DNA of 64,000 nucleotides, taken from assembly GCA_964475205.1 (NCBI GenBank), contig CAYYVQ010000003.1, positions 13,915-77,914 on the forward strand, written 5' to 3'. Source of the stretch: an uncultured Victivallales bacterium. GTDB lineage: Bacteria; Verrucomicrobiota; Kiritimatiellia; UBA8416; CAYSRM01. Under the pieces are notes generated by a model that saw nothing but the letters and a program-made list of their open reading frames with translations, was not told the DNA's origin and searched no databases. Below, one piece after another: positions 1,230 through 55,315 of this stretch (its first letter is position 1; each line of letters opens with the position of its first letter). Made by a program: the position numbers and the translations under genes.

Positions 1230-2729
1230 ATGCCTGTGTCTGCTCAGAAAAAGAAGAATATTATTGTTATAGGATCCGGGCTTGGAGGCATATCGGCAGC
1301 AATATCCCTTGCCCAGGCCGGACATCAGGTCGATATTTTCGAAAAAAACGAAAAGATCGGTGGGAAACTTAATTTTCTGGAGAAAGACGGCTACACCTTT
1401 GACCTGGGGCCTTCTATACTTACCTTGCCCCAGAACTTCCGCCGGTTGTTTGAACGGTCCGGACGCAGGATGTCGGACTATTTCACTATTCGCCCCGTCA
1501 GGCCACACTGGCGAAATTTTTTTGAAGATGGAACTGTTCTTGATCTGCACCCGGCCCCCGAAGTCATGGCCGGAGAGGCCCGTAAAGTGGGGGAACGCCC
1601 GGAACATATCCAGTCATTCCTTGAGTATTCCGCGCGTTTATATGACCTCGTTGAGAGGGGATATTTTCAGCAAGGGCTGGATACTCTGCAGGATTTCAAG
1701 CGGTTTTACGGCGTTTGGGATTTTCCCCGGTTTGATCTGCTCAGAAGCATGGATGGCGCTGTAAGAAAGCGCCTTCTTACTCCTTATTTTCGCGATATTT
1801 TTGATTTTTTTATAAAATATGTTGGATCCTCCGCCCTTAGATCTCCGGCTTTTATGAATTGTCTCCCGACAATTCAGTTCAGGCATGATCTCTGGTATGT
1901 GGATGGCGGGATGTACAACATTGCCAGGGGGCTGAATCGGTTGATGCATGACCTTGGCGTCAAGGTGAACTGCAACAGCGAGGTCAGCCGGATTATAACT
2001 GATGAAAATTCCGTTCAGGGAGTTGTTCTGGCCTCAGGGCGTGAGGTCAAGGCGGACGCGATCGTATGCAACATGGAATTCATTCCGGCGTGCAAGTTTC
2101 TGCTGGGCGAAGACAGCAGGCGCATAAACAAGCTTGAAAGAAAATATGAGCCTGCATGTTCAGGGTTGGTAATCGACCTTGGTCTTGATGTTACATATCC
2201 CCGGCTTGCGCACCATAATTTTTTCTTTTCCGCTGACCAGAAGAAGCATTTTCGCAGTGTATTTGAGCAGCACTGTCTTCCTGAAGATCCCACCCTTTAC
2301 GTTGTTGCAGCAGCAAGGTCGGATCGTGGAATTGCCCCCGAAGGTTGCGATGTGCTGAAGATTCTGCCGCACATACCCTACATAGATAATAACCAGCCGA
2401 TTCCCGATGACCGGTACAGGCAGCTGAAAGATGTTGTTGTTAGAAAGCTTGAGAGGATGGGCCTGGCCGATCTTCGAAGGCATATTGTAACCGAGCATTT
2501 CTGGACCCCGAAGGATATCTATAAGAACTACTACTCGAATCGCGGTTCGATTTACGGAGTCGTTTGCGACAGGTTCCGAAATTTTGGATTCAAAGCTCCG
2601 AAACGAAGCACGGAATACAGGAATCTTTTCTTTGCCGGCGGTTCTGTTAATCCAGGCGGGGGGATGCCGATGGTTGTTTTAAGCGGTCAGCAAGCTGCAG
2701 GGATGGTTTCGGATGTTCTTGCCCGGTGA
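1230..2729 (+). CDS. crtP: Phytoene desaturase family protein, CrtP/CrtNb-type (4,4'-diaponeurosporene/diapolycopene oxygenase-like)
   Basis: GxGxxG FAD motif, FDLGPSILT, FIKYVGSS, LAHHNFFF, KILPHIPYI, SNRGSIYGVV, GGSVNPGGGMPMV. These closely follow my recollection of S. aureus CrtP. Confidence 0.82.
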   Translation: MPVSAQKKKNIIVIGSGLGGISAAISLAQAGHQVDIFEKNEKIGGKLNFLEKDGYTFDLGPSILTLPQNFRRLFERSGRRMSDYFTIRPVRPHWRNFFEDGTVLDLHPAPEVMAGEARKVGERPEHIQSFLEYSARLYDLVERGYFQQGLDTLQDFKRFYGVWDFPRFDLLRSMDGAVRKRLLTPYFRDIFDFFIKYVGSSALRSPAFMNCLPTIQFRHDLWYVDGGMYNIARGLNRLMHDLGVKVNCNSEVSRIITDENSVQGVVLASGREVKADAIVCNMEFIPACKFLLGEDSRRINKLERKYEPACSGLVIDLGLDVTYPRLAHHNFFFSADQKKHFRSVFEQHCLPEDPTLYVVAAARSDRGIAPEGCDVLKILPHIPYIDNNQPIPDDRYRQLKDVVVRKLERMGLADLRRHIVTEHFWTPKDIYKNYYSNRGSIYGVVCDRFRNFGFKAPKRSTEYRNLFFAGGSVNPGGGMPMVVLSGQQAAGMVSDVLAR

Positions 2730-2839
2730 CCTCATGGAGGTTGGAGCCGGCAGAGATGAAGGATTGATTTTAAATGCTTGATGTTGATGTGACGGATTGT
2801 TCGAAGATTTCACTGGGGCAGGTGGTGACAGGAGTCGGG

Positions 2840-3625
2840 TTGCAGGTTTGCGTCCTGGGAAGCGGAAGTTCGGGAAACTGCACTTATGTAGGGTCGTCGG
2901 CAGGGGGAATCCTGATAGACGCCGGGTTGAGCTACAAGGAAACGGAACTAAGGCTGAAGGCGGCGGGCATCGTTCCGGGTATGGTTCAAGCCGTATGCGT
3001 TACTCATGAGCACGATGATCATATCTCGAGTCTGGGCGTTATCTACAGGCGTTTGGGCGTTCCATTGTATGCTAATGCCGGCACAATCAACGCCATTGAA
3101 TCCAGGGAAAAATTTCAGGGGCTTCCGTGGAATGTTTTTACAAATGGAGCATCATTTGAGATAGGCGGTTTGCGGATAGAGCCTTTTTCGGTTCCGCACG
3201 ATGCTTATGATCCGGTGGGCTTCGTGGTTGAGTCCGGAGGCGCCAGGGCCGGGGTTGTGACCGATATGGGCACGGCCACCGAGCTTATTCGAGACAGGTT
3301 GAAATCCTGTGATGTTATTGTTGTTGAGTGCAACCATGATAAAGATCTTTTGAGGGACTCTTCCCGGCCCTGGTTTCTGAAGCAGCGCATACAAGGCAGG
3401 CAGGGACATTTGTCGAATGACCAGACCGTTGAGTTTCTTTGCCAGACTGCCGGACCTCATACGCGCGCGGTATATCTTGCGCATATGAGCTCTGATTGCA
3501 ACTGTCCGGACGCCGCTCTTGGTTATGTGAAGCAAGGGTTGGTTGATGCCGGATTCAGTTCAATTAAGGTTAATTTGACTTATCCGGACAGGGTGAGCGA
3601 GGTATTTGATATGGGCCCGAAATAA
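2840..3625 (+). CDS. MBL-fold metallo-hydrolase, YycJ/WalJ-like
   Basis: LGSGSSGN, THEHDDH, VPHDA, TDMG, ECNHD, GHLSN, LAHMS. TTG at 2840 follows AGGAG; the ORF track start is 2774. Confidence 0.88.
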   Translation: MQVCVLGSGSSGNCTYVGSSAGGILIDAGLSYKETELRLKAAGIVPGMVQAVCVTHEHDDHISSLGVIYRRLGVPLYANAGTINAIESREKFQGLPWNVFTNGASFEIGGLRIEPFSVPHDAYDPVGFVVESGGARAGVVTDMGTATELIRDRLKSCDVIVVECNHDKDLLRDSSRPWFLKQRIQGRQGHLSNDQTVEFLCQTAGPHTRAVYLAHMSSDCNCPDAALGYVKQGLVDAGFSSIKVNLTYPDRVSEVFDMGPK

Positions 3626-9431: not shown

Positions 9432-10439
9432 ATGGGAATGGAAATATTACCTTCAGATTTGGAAAACATGCAGGGCCGCAGTTTTCTCAAACTTGCGGAT
9501 GTGAGCGATGTGGAAATGATGGCGTTGCTTGATCTTGCAGACGCGTTAAAGATCGAAGGTCGCAAGGGCAGAATGCGCCTCGCCGGCCGAAGCGTTGCGA
9601 TGCTGTTTGAAAAAGCGTCCACCCGGACCCGTTGTGCGACTGCCGTGGCAATGGCGTCGGAGGGTGGACACGTGGAATACCTGTCGGGAAAGGAGATTCA
9701 CCTTGGGAAAAAGGAGTCTGTCGCTGATACAGGGCGAGTCCTCGGGAGGATGTTTGACGGTATTATGTTTCGAGGTTTCAAGCAGTCCACGGTTGAAGCA
9801 TTGGCGCGGAGCGCCGGAAAGCCGGTCTGGAACGGATTGACCGACGAATGCCATCCCACGCAGGCGCTGGCCGGGTTGATGACGGTGCGGGAGCATTTTT
9901 CTGAACTTCAGGGTTTGAGGTTTGTCTATGTCGGAGACGGCAGGAATAACGTGGCCTCTTCTTTTATGCTTGGGTGCGCAAAAGCCGGAATGGATTGTTG
10001 TGTGTGCGCTCCGGCGGAGCTGGCTCCAAGAGGAGACGCAGTAAATCAGGCTGCTGAAGTTGCCGAATCAAATGACGCGAGAATCAGTTTTATGGAAGAC
10101 CCCGAGGAAGCCGTTCGGGGCGCAAATGTTATATATACTGATGTATGGGCATCCATGGGCGAGGAAAGCAGGTTGAAAAAACGTATTGAGGTTCTCAGCC
10201 CATACCAGGTTAACATGCGGATGATTCGCCAGACCGGCAACCTGGAGGCCGGACGGGTAGTTTTTCTGCATTGTCTTCCCGCTTATCATGACAACAACAC
10301 AGATGTTACAAAGGAGCTTGGCGCGCTGGAAGTGACTGACGAAGTTTTTGAGTCAGCTTTTTCAAAAGTGTTTGATGAGGCTGAAAACCGGCTTCACACG
10401 ATAAAAGCATTGATGCTGGCAAGTATTTGCAGGGATTAA
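9432..10439 (+). CDS. argF: Ornithine carbamoyltransferase
   Basis: FEKASTRTR, HPTQ, GDGRNNV, DVWASMG, FLHCLP, AENR. Confidence 0.93.
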   Translation: MGMEILPSDLENMQGRSFLKLADVSDVEMMALLDLADALKIEGRKGRMRLAGRSVAMLFEKASTRTRCATAVAMASEGGHVEYLSGKEIHLGKKESVADTGRVLGRMFDGIMFRGFKQSTVEALARSAGKPVWNGLTDECHPTQALAGLMTVREHFSELQGLRFVYVGDGRNNVASSFMLGCAKAGMDCCVCAPAELAPRGDAVNQAAEVAESNDARISFMEDPEEAVRGANVIYTDVWASMGEESRLKKRIEVLSPYQVNMRMIRQTGNLEAGRVVFLHCLPAYHDNNTDVTKELGALEVTDEVFESAFSKVFDEAENRLHTIKALMLASICRD

Positions 10440-10456: not shown

Positions 10457-10493
10457 TCCGCGCAGCAGGAATTCTGTGAGAAATGCGGGTTAA
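10457..10493. repeat. Partial end of MITE family B
   Basis: cgcagcaggaattctgtgagaaatgcgggttaa matches the reverse complement of 24496-24530. Confidence 0.75.
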
Positions 10494-10554
10494 AGGCCCC
10501 GGACATCAGGGGTAGAAAGGTAGTGTCAAAAGTTTAATGAAGAGTAATGAAAGC

Positions 10555-10727
10555 TGTGTGTGGGTATGTGAGTGTGTGGGTGAATAGGAGTTGGCATGGT
10601 TAAGCATTTCAGGGAACTGAGGGTATACCGAGAGGCGTTTGACGCGGCCATGCGGATCTTCGAATGCTCAAAGGAGTGGCCGAAAGAACCTCACATACTC
10701 ACGCACTCACATACCCACACACCCATA
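10555..10727. repeat. Inverted pair of 8-nt tandem arrays flanking a gene fragment
   Basis: Left array tgtgtggg-tatgtgag-tgtgtggg (10555-10582); right array ctcacata-ctcacgca-ctcacata-cccacaca-cccata (10690-10727). Confidence 0.85.
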
Positions 10728-10769
10728 AACGTGGGGGAGAATAACCAATCCGCTACAAGTCTTTTATGA
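10596..10769 (+). pseudogene. Truncated four-helix-bundle protein (TIGR02436 / 23S rRNA IVP family), N-terminal 31 codons only
   Basis: AGGAG RBS then MVKHFRELRVYREAFDAAMRIFECSKEWPKE, matching the family N-terminus F-x-[DE]-L-x-V-[YW]...[FW]P-x-E. The frame then runs into the octamer array (PHILTHSHTHTP...) and stops at 10769. Confidence 0.8.
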
Positions 10770-10837
10770 AAAGCAGGTTAACCCAGCAAATAAAGTAGAA
10801 AACTTGACAGAACGCCCTTGCGGAACAGGAGGTTCGG

Positions 10838-11905
10838 ATGAAGAGCTTGCGCGATATAGCCTGGGAAGAATTTAAAGATCTGGATCTTGAAGAAAAGGCG
10901 GAGTACTTTACGATAGACAGTCGCCCCTACCACACGTTGATTGCACAACAGTTTGACAGGCGCCAGCTCGACAGTTTCGGGAAGCTCGCCACAAAAATAA
11001 GATTTATTGCCAAGGATAGGGCGGGCATGCATTTTCTGCAGTCTCTTCTGTCTGACAAGAGAGTAATGCTTTATTTTACCCAGCCAAGCACACGAACCTT
11101 TCTGTCTTTTTGTGCTGCCGGCCAGATATTGGGGATGCGGACAGGCGAAGTTCGGGACACCGCTACCTCCAGTGAATTTAAAGGTGAATCAAATGAAGAT
11201 TCTGTCAGAACATTCAGTTCCTACTTTGATATGATTGTGCTGCGCAGTCCAGTGGGCGGGCTGGCCGAGAGGATGGCCTGGGTTTTAACCAATTCAGACC
11301 GACCGGTGCCTATTATCAATGCCGGTTCGGGCCGGGATCAGCATCCCACGCAGGCATTACTCGATATCTATACCCTTCAACGGAGCTTTGAGAACAGTGG
11401 CGGGATAGAAGGCAAGAAGATCGTATTTGTCGGCGACCTTGCACGCGGCCGGACCGTGAGATCGCTCTCTCTGCTGTTGCTGAAATATCCCGGAGTTAAA
11501 CAGTGTTTTGTTTCACCTGAAAAACTCCAGATTGGGGCGGACATCCTGGGCATTCTTAAAGGGCACGGTGCCAGCTATGAAGTGTCGAATGATTTTGAAT
11601 CCCATATTGGTTCGGCAGATGCCATATATATGACCCGTCTTCAGGATGAGTGGGATAAGCAGAGTGGAGACAGCGACAAGATTGATATTTCCAGTTTTTC
11701 GTTTACCTGCGGCCATCTGGCAAAACTTAAAGACAGCGCTATTCTGATGCACCCGTTTCCGCGCAGGGAAGAGATTGCCCCGGAAGTTGACCAGGATCCG
11801 CGCGCGGTTTACTGGCGCCAGATGCGCAATGGCATGTGGATTCGATCGGCTCTTATAGCGACCGTTTTCGATATTGATGAACAAATAATGGATTTTGAAT
11901 GCTGA
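10838..11905 (+). CDS. pyrB: Aspartate carbamoyltransferase catalytic subunit
   Basis: PSTRT, KGES, INAGSG..QHPTQ, GDLARGRTVRS, MTRLQ, MHPFPR. Confidence 0.92.
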   Translation: MKSLRDIAWEEFKDLDLEEKAEYFTIDSRPYHTLIAQQFDRRQLDSFGKLATKIRFIAKDRAGMHFLQSLLSDKRVMLYFTQPSTRTFLSFCAAGQILGMRTGEVRDTATSSEFKGESNEDSVRTFSSYFDMIVLRSPVGGLAERMAWVLTNSDRPVPIINAGSGRDQHPTQALLDIYTLQRSFENSGGIEGKKIVFVGDLARGRTVRSLSLLLLKYPGVKQCFVSPEKLQIGADILGILKGHGASYEVSNDFESHIGSADAIYMTRLQDEWDKQSGDSDKIDISSFSFTCGHLAKLKDSAILMHPFPRREEIAPEVDQDPRAVYWRQMRNGMWIRSALIATVFDIDEQIMDFEC

Positions 11906-17855: not shown

Positions 17856-18036
17856 CTAGCCTGATCTATTCATAAAAATCTATTACGAGTGTTCATGTCA
17901 CTTCATCTCAACGACTTTGCTGGCCAGCCGATCTTGACGTATGTTCATACGCCTTCACCCGGCTATCTGCGCAAAGCCATTGATCTAAAGCGGGCTGCGC
18001 ACTCTCATTACGAAGTTTACGCATAGATCAGGCTAG
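17856..18036. mobile_element. MITE family A (181 bp)
   Basis: 14-bp terminal inverted repeats ctagcctgatctat / atagatcaggctag; no ORF inside. Confidence 0.8.
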
Positions 18037-18171: not shown

Positions 18172-18228
18172 AACTCACGCACTCACATACCCACACACAG
18201 GACGCGCCGGAAAGTCATACGCTTTGAA
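18172..18228. repeat. 8-nt array plus degenerate internal segment of family C
   Basis: ctcacgca-ctcacata-cccacaca followed by caggacgcgcc...catacgctttgaa, similar to 24992-25046 and 55155-55191. Confidence 0.7.
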
Positions 18229-18390
18229 CGGCGGCGGGTATTCTCTTGAGGCATGCAGCCGGCGCATCTTATAATTCAAGTATATGTAATCTTGGATGCC
18301 GTTGAAAAACCGATAAGTTCTGTGTGTTCATATAAAGCCATAGACAGGATGGGAAGGCTGATTGCGTAGAGGCGGCAAAGGTGGAAGGGA

Positions 18391-18474
18391 GAATATCCAA
18401 TATCCAAGACGGAATATCCAATGATTAAGTGACATGCACACTCGTAGTAGATTTTTATGAATAGATCAGGTTAG
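18391..18474. repeat. 7-nt (aatatcc) array joined to an inverted family A end abutting a start codon
   Basis: gaatatccaatatccaagacggaatatccaatg; 18424-18474 is close to the reverse complement of 17856-17908. Confidence 0.75.
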
Positions 18475-24910: not shown

Positions 24911-25017
24911 GTATGTGGGTATGTGAGTGTGTGGGTATGTGGGAAAAGCGAGAACGGGGCAGGCAGGGTTGATCTCTCTCATCCTGACAAACTCACATAC
25001 TCACACACTCACACACA
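24911..25017. repeat. Inverted pair of 8-nt arrays with short non-coding spacer
   Basis: tatgtggg-tatgtgag-tgtgtggg-tatgtggg ... ctcacata-ctcacaca-ctcacaca; same units as 10555-10727. Confidence 0.85.
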
Positions 25018-25106
25018 GGACGCGCGGTGAAACTATACGCTTTGAAAAGGGCTTAACTAAGCGCCATTCCAGGCTAATGTCCTGTGTAGCTGAGCATTAT
25101 TGTTGC

Positions 25107-55094: not shown

Positions 55095-55214
55095 GAATGG
55101 CGCTTAGATAACGCTGTTTGGGATTGAATTTGACGATGGGCATGGAAAATCCTTCACACACAGGACGCGCGGTGAAACTATACGCTTTGAAAAGGGCTTA
55201 ACTAAGCGCCATTC
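55095..55214. mobile_element. MITE family C (120 bp) with perfect 12-bp target-site duplication
   Basis: TIR gaatggcgcttag / ctaagcgccattc flanked by direct repeats cggcgtagtgcc (55083-55094 and 55215-55226). Confidence 0.92.
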
Positions 55215-55315
55215 CGGCGTAGTGCCCAAATATCATGAGCTTGCGAGAGTTGGGCAACACGCCGTTTACTGTTCTGTTTTCTTGAATTCGTTCGGAAAAT
55301 CGCGCAATATGCCGC

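Follow-up and report, generated by a model that had tools for sequence, protein, structure and literature searches.

We refer to the whole stretch of DNA analysed here, 64,000 nucleotides from an uncultured Victivallales bacterium, as the window. Its argF and pyrB genes are separated by a spacer that contains the start of a four-helix-bundle (4HB) gene between two arrays of an octamer repeat, the right array being inverted with respect to the left (Table 1). The arms at 10556-10581 and 10697-10722 are 26 nt long, 92% complementary, and 115 nt apart, and both of their two mismatches are G-U-compatible on the + strand. RNA folding of the sequence from 10517 to 10813 yields a 27-bp array stem (-103.3 kcal/mol, z = -6.3), and none of 200 shuffled sequences folded as well. 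The sole Rfam match of the element, mir-466, scores 32.5 bits against a gathering score of 85 and is an artefact of the TG/CA-rich hairpin. Likewise, a CRISPR array is ruled out since the units are 8 nt long and carry no spacers between them.

Table 1. Features of the argF-pyrB spacer and related arrays in the window
Feature	Position	Strand	Basis or remark
argF	9432-10439	+	left neighbour of the element
Entire element, 296 nt, a probable MITE (internally deleted mobile insertion cassette)	10519-10814	+	alignment of genome copies
Left shell with terminal inverted repeat (GGTAGTGTCAAAAGTTT...)	10519-10554	+	15 left ends in the genome
Left octamer array, TRTGTGRG, 3.4 units	10556-10582	+	Tandem Repeats Finder, period 8
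Shine-Dalgarno-like AGGAG, 5 nt 5' of ATG	10586-10590	+	read from the sequence
First 31 codons of a 4HB gene (TIGR02436/PF05635), remainder deleted	10596-10688	+	profile matches and identity to L058
57-aa ORF, continuing through the right array	10596-10769	+	ORF listing
Right octamer array, reverse complement of the left	10690-10725	+	Tandem Repeats Finder, period 8, 4.2 copies; also period 16, 2.1 copies
Right inner shell, containing GGGGGAGAATAACCAATCCGCT	10726-10794	+	motif also 3' of the intact 4HB gene in L069 and in the L159/L160 elements
Right end (...AAACTTGACAGAACG)	10795-10814	+	reverse complement pairs with left terminus GGT[AT][GC]TGTCAA
pyrB	10838-11905	+	right neighbour of the element
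Single right-type octamer arm, followed by a CAGGACGCGC.. repeat	18172-18198	.	same repeat as at 25017, past the hairpin
Gene-less hairpin of the same octamer family, no shell	24911-25016 (to 25017)	.	arms 24911-24943 and 24976-25016

The family link of the 31-aa piece is best seen in a comparison with a complete protein. By profile, the piece aligns with the N-terminus only, both of PF05635 (positions 1-27 of 106, E 0.012, 16.2 bits, cut-off 33.8) and of NF008911 (E 0.011), and these matches are weak because the piece is short. Stronger evidence is provided by the full-length TIGR02436 protein L058 of the relative G010, to whose N-terminus 24 of 30 residues are identical, and which itself scores 88.8 bits for TIGR02436 (cut-off 24) and 101.5 bits for PF05635. 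Thus, the fragment stays below the family threshold as a whole protein and belongs to the family by descent from a member; it is best read as a remnant of PF05635/TIGR02436 rather than as a member protein. The preliminary description of the locus, in which a left array is followed by a ribosome binding site, 31 codons of a 4HB gene, and an inverted array, is borne out by the 26-nt arms and the identity to L058.

Copies in the genome define a unit that extends beyond the arrays

Alignment of four long and six shorter copies from the same genome defines a repeated unit that starts with GGTAGTGTCAAAAG (10519 in the window) and stops with CTTGACAGAAC plus one base (10814). Hence, the repeats first noticed at this locus were correctly observed but placed within too narrow an extent. 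The unit is bounded by terminal inverted repeats, with GGTAGTGTCAA as the left terminus and (C/G)GTTCTGTCAA as the reverse complement of the right end. We term the end sequences outside the arrays the "shell". A 107-nt core occurs in four copies at 99-100% identity, on contigs C3 (the window), C80, C1, and C109, and identity over the whole unit is 89-96%. The genome has 15 left ends in total. Left and right ends are paired in 10 cases, at lengths of 88-311 nt, with the short pairs consisting of shell, one array arm, and shell. All are small, none carries a transposase, and the only ORF is that of 57 aa.

Exact 8-bp target duplications flank four of the ten pairs (GGTTTTGG, ACCGATTC, TACCAGTA, TAGATCAG), and two further pairs have duplications matching at 7 of 8 positions. 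None was found at the window copy, C80, C45, and the degenerate C14 copy when all ten pairs were inspected. The duplications adjoin the terminal inverted repeats, which lie 37 nt and 89 nt outside the arrays, so that the arrays do not delimit the mobile unit as had been supposed. Even the short copies C29 and C79, which retain one array arm and no gene, are flanked by 8-bp duplications.

Sister genomes lack the element at this site. In G002, whose argF-pyrB region is 92-95% identical on two contigs, the spacer is 13 nt long and without the element, and the spacer of G001 (76% identity) is likewise without it. Together with the near-identical copies, this confirms that the unit is mobile. The search for an empty site succeeded in showing absence; the junction is no clean footprint, as the window has about 29 nt more than the G002 spacer to the left of the element. 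The two G002 contigs, C69 and C70, carry the argF-pyrB region twice at 92-95% identity, which may reflect either a duplicated region or a bin that mixes two strains. The window sequence is also present in microbial-mat metagenome runs of two studies; contigs from these runs break inside the element, and none spans argF-pyrB with or without it. A joint of 10577 to 10777 in the run contigs corresponds to the short MITE form at other loci.

Array hairpins and dispersed repeats elsewhere in the window

The cargo-free inverted arrays reported at 24911-25017 are real, with arm pairings of 23 nt at 91% and 31 nt at 81%. Other copies of this hairpin lie at C63:247-424 (99.4%) and C53:1-109, the latter beside a shell left end. 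The single arm at 18172-18198 is equally genuine; no inverted partner was found for it, and it is present in diverged form in the sister genome G002. Truncated, gene-less, and single-arm forms thus coexist, as the preliminary description had it. Its ordering of them as three decay stages of one lineage at one type of site is unsupported, since the 24911 copy and the 18172 arm lack the shell and abut a different repeat of 65 nt.

This 65-nt dispersed repeat (CAGGACGCGCGGTGAAAC...) abuts the gene-less hairpin at 25011-25075, recurs at 55154-55215 and on at least six other contigs, and in diverged form adjoins the lone arm at 18199. A different MITE, abundant and roughly 180 nt long, with ends CCTGATCTATTCAT... 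and flanked by YTAG, has a copy at 17860-18030 (- strand), which is absent from the same site in G002, and a right-end piece at 18423-18470. It gives 92 BLAST rows in the window genome, 59 of them with full flanks, and about 120 matches are listed over three sister genomes; matches to this MITE in the query dominated the sister-genome comparison of the 24911 hairpin site. A 33-nt repeat (GCAGCAGGAATTCTGTGAGAAATGCGGG...) at 10461-10493, just left of the argF-pyrB element, looks like the left end of the abundant MITE in a variant form and has more than 100 matches listed across G001-G003. Further, a 43-nt piece of the 4HB fragment occurs at C25:7404-7446 of the same genome, 100% identical, in an unrelated context and adjoining an abundant-MITE end.

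Solo GAATATCCAATATCCAACACGGAATATCCAATGATGAAGG arms are found at 18387-18429 of the window and on contigs C32, C13, C20, C88, C14, and C58 of its genome (G000). They equal the left arm plus start codon of the one intact 4HB cassette type of this genome, which lies at C6:70815-71099 between perfect 18-nt inverted repeats. In the window, ATGA(T/G)(T/G)AAG marks the point at which this arm is joined to the abundant MITE's right end.

Full-length parents and other deletion derivatives in relatives

PF05635 genes occur in 29 of the 31 genomes of the order that were searched, the window genome included. The full-length parent that had been postulated is represented by L058, in which an intact TIGR02436 gene lies between inverted arrays of the same octamer family as in the window. 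In L069 (G030) and L034 (G021), both shell ends enclose arrays and an intact 4HB gene, as expected of mobile insertion cassettes (MICs), in which an intact passenger gene lies between the ends; the window copy has no such intact passenger. L026 (G016) also has the shell around an intact gene but runs into the contig end. Because such parents with the same arrays exist in relatives, the window fragment derives from an array-4HB-array cassette, in agreement with the initial proposal.

Other gutted forms accompany these parents. L163 (G016) and L232 (a PVC-group MAG) share their shell and TRTGTGRG arrays with the window element, as well as the protein N-terminus MSVVKHFRE..., which is truncated at a different breakpoint, and two more G016 copies, L159 and L160, bear other internal deletions. 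Therefore, many derivatives of a cassette-bearing element have arisen by internal deletion, the window element among them. Across relatives, the shell holds interchangeable cassettes with different repeat units.

The shell matches the ends of an insertion-sequence family

We searched the order with a left-end pattern of 19 specified bases, allowing at most one mismatch, and found it in 30 of 64 genomes and 19 of 39 genera; the reversed control gave 0. In a species-representative collection, the exact pattern occurs in at least 118 stretches, whose sequence records assign them to Nitrospirota, Calditrichota, Bacillota, Acidobacteriota, Omnitrophota, Desulfobacterota, Verrucomicrobia, Victivallales, and others. 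Many of these stretches are MITEs with 8-bp duplications, and MITEs that share the ends and have duplications of 8-9 bp are found in relatives as well as across many phyla. Outside the order, a 4HB gene lies behind just one of 41 shell ends, so the shell is primarily an IS or MITE end. In an Omnitrophota MAG (L224:49-600) and in L200, L190, and L211, the same shell contains a GxxExxY gene (TIGR04256, 144.7 bits) or remnants of one, placed between inverted CACAGAG-type arrays. By these sequence matches, GxxExxY genes form a second family of cargo that is packaged in this way in other phyla.

In distant phyla, a DDE transposase of 390-507 aa adjoins the end motif in 6 of 18 ORFs tested. It matches Pfam DDE_Tnp_IS240 and, in some copies, also rve_3, and scores 67-83 bits for the NCBIfam IS6 model (NF033587, cut-off 125) and up to 46 bits for the IS66 model (cut-off 180). 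The autonomous partner would accordingly be classed as IS6-like rather than as a member by NF033587. We presume that the transposase of roughly 490 aa belongs to the ISBst12 group of IS66. A Bacillus representative of the family has copies, 66-70% identical, on Geobacillus plasmids, and an IS66/ISBst12 element is listed on one of these plasmids, with ISBst12 classed under IS66, in a table of a published survey (PMC8024623, Table 4).

Two complete autonomous elements connect this transposase to the shell. L297 (G019) spans 116-2049 with the target duplication ATCCAAAC, and L295 (G058) spans 1267-3244 with the duplication CGAATTTA; duplications of 8 bp, as both have, are a trait of the IS6 family. 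Both elements comprise the shell left end, a GGGGGAGA motif at the same place as the right inner shell motif GGGGGAGAATAACCAATCCGCT of the window, and a TTTGACAGAAC end, arranged around an ORF of 489-507 aa (NCBIfam IS6 71.8 bits, Pfam DDE_Tnp_IS240 and rve_3). Between the ends and the transposase gene, both carry array hairpins, which in L295 include TRTGTGRG units and an AATCGT hairpin. The left shell of the window is identical to the L295 left end at 28 of 36 positions (z 9.1), and the likeness of the right ends is weak beyond the two motifs (z 1.5-2.6). Based on the shared ends, motifs, and hairpins, we assign the shell to the two ends of this IS6-like DDE-transposase IS family. The element is hence not the uncharacterised transposase-free system that it was first taken for, as a cognate autonomous IS with the same ends is present in relatives. 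In G019, an intact 4HB gene (L297:2074-2300) begins 24 nt past the right end of the autonomous IS.

Taken together, 10519-10814 is probably a MITE, an internal-deletion derivative of a mobile cassette in which IS ends carry an arrayed 4HB gene, mobilised in trans by the cognate IS. The IS ends would have enclosed a hairpin cassette, the 4HB gene between two inverted 8-nt arrays, from which an internal deletion would have left the ribosome binding site and the first 31 codons between the arrays. The DDE transposase that the cognate IS encodes would then have mobilised the copies in trans, presumably through staggered 8-bp cuts. This reading draws on the copy number, the terminal inverted repeats, the 8-bp duplications elsewhere, the absence from sister genomes, the parents, and the autonomous relatives, all of which are established. 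Counting against it are the missing target duplication of the window copy, the imperfect footprint in G002, the weak likeness of the right end to that of the autonomous IS, the 17 terminal nt shared with an IS256-family IS, and the distribution of the transposase, whose profile detects it in 3 of 64 genomes of the order against 30 of 64 for the shell end. A profile search did not find the cognate transposase gene in the window genome (94% complete, 137 contigs), so the copies may now be immobile.

Arrays and 4HB genes are co-inherited

To compare cassettes, we sampled 90 4HB genes from the window genome and 29 relatives (30 best loci and 60 further matches listed), skipping contig-edge matches and internal stops; 85 of the 90 have enough flanking sequence. 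The best upstream/downstream stem score has a median of 17 over these 85 loci, compared to 8 for mismatched upstream/downstream pairs. Stems exceed the 95th percentile of this null at 72-74 of the 85 intact genes and the 99th percentile at 43. Repeated 7-mers common to both arms are inverted at 61 of 81 loci and direct at 13 of 81. The preliminary description had staked its reading on a family match of the peptide and on arrays beside intact homologues, and both were found.

The repeat unit varies from locus to locus and follows the protein. In all 12 locus pairs with a common unit, the proteins are 56-92% identical, against a median of 22% over all pairs, and no permutation out of 999 in a Mantel test of unit sharing against protein identity matched the observed association. 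Arrays and 4HB gene are thereby shown by sequence comparison to be co-inherited as a unit, which is distinct from recognition of the arrays by the protein. Just 10 of the 34 pairs with proteins at least 60% identical still have a common unit; therefore, the arrays turn over faster than the gene. An amino-acid-to-base "code" relating protein to unit is rejected, as the data show co-inheritance and no case of unrelated proteins with the same unit among the compared loci. In 72 array stems, sense-strand G-U-type mismatches show no excess over A-C-type mismatches (78 versus 62, p 0.20; 189 other mismatches), so neither an RNA nor a DNA role is favoured.

Joint inheritance would also be expected if the array-gene-array unit itself were mobile via its arrays, with the 4HB protein or a host factor acting on them and the shell being incidental. 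Just 4 of 88 sampled cassettes lie inside a shell of the window type, so most cassettes travel otherwise, yet inverted arrays are the rule. Moreover, a shell-less 4HB cassette of 606 nt with AATCGT arms in G003 (L030:1344-1949) is absent from the corresponding site in the window genome (C68:2009-2013) and is flanked by a 7-nt direct repeat, GAGAAGG. However, some 50-65 nt of imperfectly inverted sequence lie outside the arrays at either end of this cassette and could belong to another outer vehicle, and within the window genome the duplications flank the outer terminal repeats rather than the arrays, even at the single-arm, gene-less copies C29 and C79. We therefore regard array-driven mobility of the window element as unlikely.

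A second transposase family with near-identical termini

The MITE reading could hold with a different source of transposase. IS256-family elements of the order, L125:199-1610 (G028) and a similar IS in the sister genome G001 (L119), agree with the shell over the first 17 nt of their terminal repeats. L125 is a complete IS (NF033543, 312 bits) with 35-nt terminal repeats starting GGTACTGTCAAAAGTTG, and its end differs from the window copy at two of the 17 positions. IS256 elements generate target duplications of 8-9 bp, in keeping with those seen here. The likeness ends after these 17 nt, in contrast to the IS6-like IS, where the match extends over the entire left shell (28/36) and includes the inner motifs and the internal hairpins, and an IS256 transposase was not found in the window genome. 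With the match so confined, mobilisation by an IS256-family transposase is rather improbable and is kept as a minor rival to the IS6/ISBst12-like one. Consequently, two unrelated transposase families with near-identical termini occur in one order. ISL3 was also considered as the source of the ends and discarded: PF01610 is absent from the window genome, and the ISL3 terminal repeats in relatives are unrelated.

The insertion in its argF-pyrB context

The fragment and both neighbouring genes are on the + strand, and after transcription the arrays of the MITE would pair into a stem of 26-27 bp. By analogy with the RNase III-cut stem of 23S rRNA intervening sequences (IVSs), RNase III could cut this stem. 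One could imagine from the shared strand and the strength of the stem that the insertion has been co-opted. The hairpin might then act between the two genes as an insulator or a site of RNA processing, or pyrB might draw a -35 box from the TTGACA that points outward at the MITE right end, 30 nt before the pyrB start. Such a role is quite unlikely given that the sister genomes keep the gene pair with spacers of 13 nt or about 50 nt and no element, and that the same unit sits in unrelated contexts elsewhere in the genome.

The 57-aa ORF is open in all four long copies (57, 57, 92, and 57 aa); its tail is probably translated repeat without meaning, and the truncated ORF is probably a dead remnant. 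That it encodes a functional mini-protein, helix 1 of the bundle with a repeat-encoded tail, is extremely improbable: although the ribosome binding site is intact, the core is 99-100% conserved while the arrays vary, and N-terminal-only derivatives with a different breakpoint exist in two other genomes (L163, L232), the sole two substitutions within the 31 codons among the long copies are both non-synonymous, three of four helices are missing, the tail varies among copies, and high identity is expected of recent copies, next to arrays that mutate fast by slippage.

Discussion

The window element resembles known MITEs and MICs in its terminal inverted repeats, fixed-length duplications, lack of a transposase, many copies, internal deletions, and cognate autonomous IS. 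As in MICs, of which MIC231 with IS231 ends is an example, its full-length relatives carry a passenger gene between IS ends. It differs in that the passenger is an IVS-type hairpin cassette, in that cassettes with different repeat units are interchangeable within the shell, and in that the autonomous IS itself bears hairpins. The cognate IS resembles IS6 and the ISBst12 group of IS66 in having one ORF, for a DDE transposase, in its 8-bp duplications, and in ends that begin GG.nCTGT, to which the ends of IS26 and IS257 are similar. Its transposase differs by an N-terminal cysteine-rich region and by scores below the NCBIfam cut-offs; the IS26 transposase is about half as long.

The cargo itself recalls the IVSs of 23S rRNA. 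Both combine the same protein family with inverted repeats whose stem, about 26-28 bp long, encloses the ORF in a loop and lies well within the range of at least about 20 bp expected around an IVS ORF; both also have a patchy distribution that suggests horizontal spread. In Coxiella burnetii, the IVS with S23p has a 28-bp stem that RNase III cuts in the middle; an ORF-bearing IVS of Leptospira is cited in the same article, where horizontal transfer of ORF-bearing IVSs is suggested (PMC4990558). In contrast, the window element lies between the protein genes argF and pyrB rather than in an rRNA helix, its arms are tandem arrays of 8 nt, and it is placed inside transposon ends with target duplications. 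"23S rRNA IVP" is also named among novel CRISPR-adaptation associations in a figure legend (PMC10910872).

Other systems are more remote. Avd, the accessory protein of diversity-generating retroelements (DGRs), belongs to the same four-helix-bundle fold family, and L058 scores 26 bits for NF033474, below the cut-off of 80. Among the ORFs neighbouring the element, there is no reverse transcriptase, and no template/variable repeat pair was found beside it. REP/REPIN sequences mobilised with RAYT are likewise short, dispersed, hairpin-forming intergenic repeats; the window family differs by its terminal inverted repeats, 8-bp duplications, and DDE transposase in relatives, and no RAYT linkage was found for it.

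Our literature searches returned no paper on array-flanked 4HB cassettes or on MITEs that carry them. MITEs and cargo-bearing IS derivatives are known as such; IVS-type hairpin cargo, the exchange of cassettes at one position of the shell, and near-universal locus-specific arrays are undescribed in the literature searched.

How ORF-bearing rRNA IVSs and the highly abundant 4HB genes spread has been a question since the 1990s, and the window points to a vehicle that is concrete and open to testing, namely an IS family with a DDE transposase together with its MITEs, distributed across many phyla and carrying hairpin cassettes as cargo. These elements swap cassettes at one set position immediately within the left end, and gutted copies remain behind. 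Nearly every sampled 4HB gene sits between inverted tandem arrays, the unit of which is locus-specific and passed on together with the protein. For annotation, this means that such 31-codon "genes" and 8-nt arrays are transposon debris rather than small genes or CRISPR-like arrays.

Beyond the MITE reading of the window copy, we tentatively raise a broader possibility, which we hold to be doubtful at present. The 4HB gene and its matched arrays may form a self-contained selfish module, whose protein, plausibly a pentamer like its solved relatives, would recognise its own repeat units as DNA or RNA. Such a module would settle in non-coding DNA prone to form hairpins, including the ends of several IS families and their MITEs, intergenic spacers, and rRNA helices, and would ride these vehicles between genomes. 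The nearest solved relatives, 2RLD and 2GSC, are uncharacterised and were each deposited with five chains. If this were true, the GxxExxY genes in the same shell would be a second cargo using the same packaging, and the intervening sequences of rRNA would merely be the first-noticed landing site of a widespread class.
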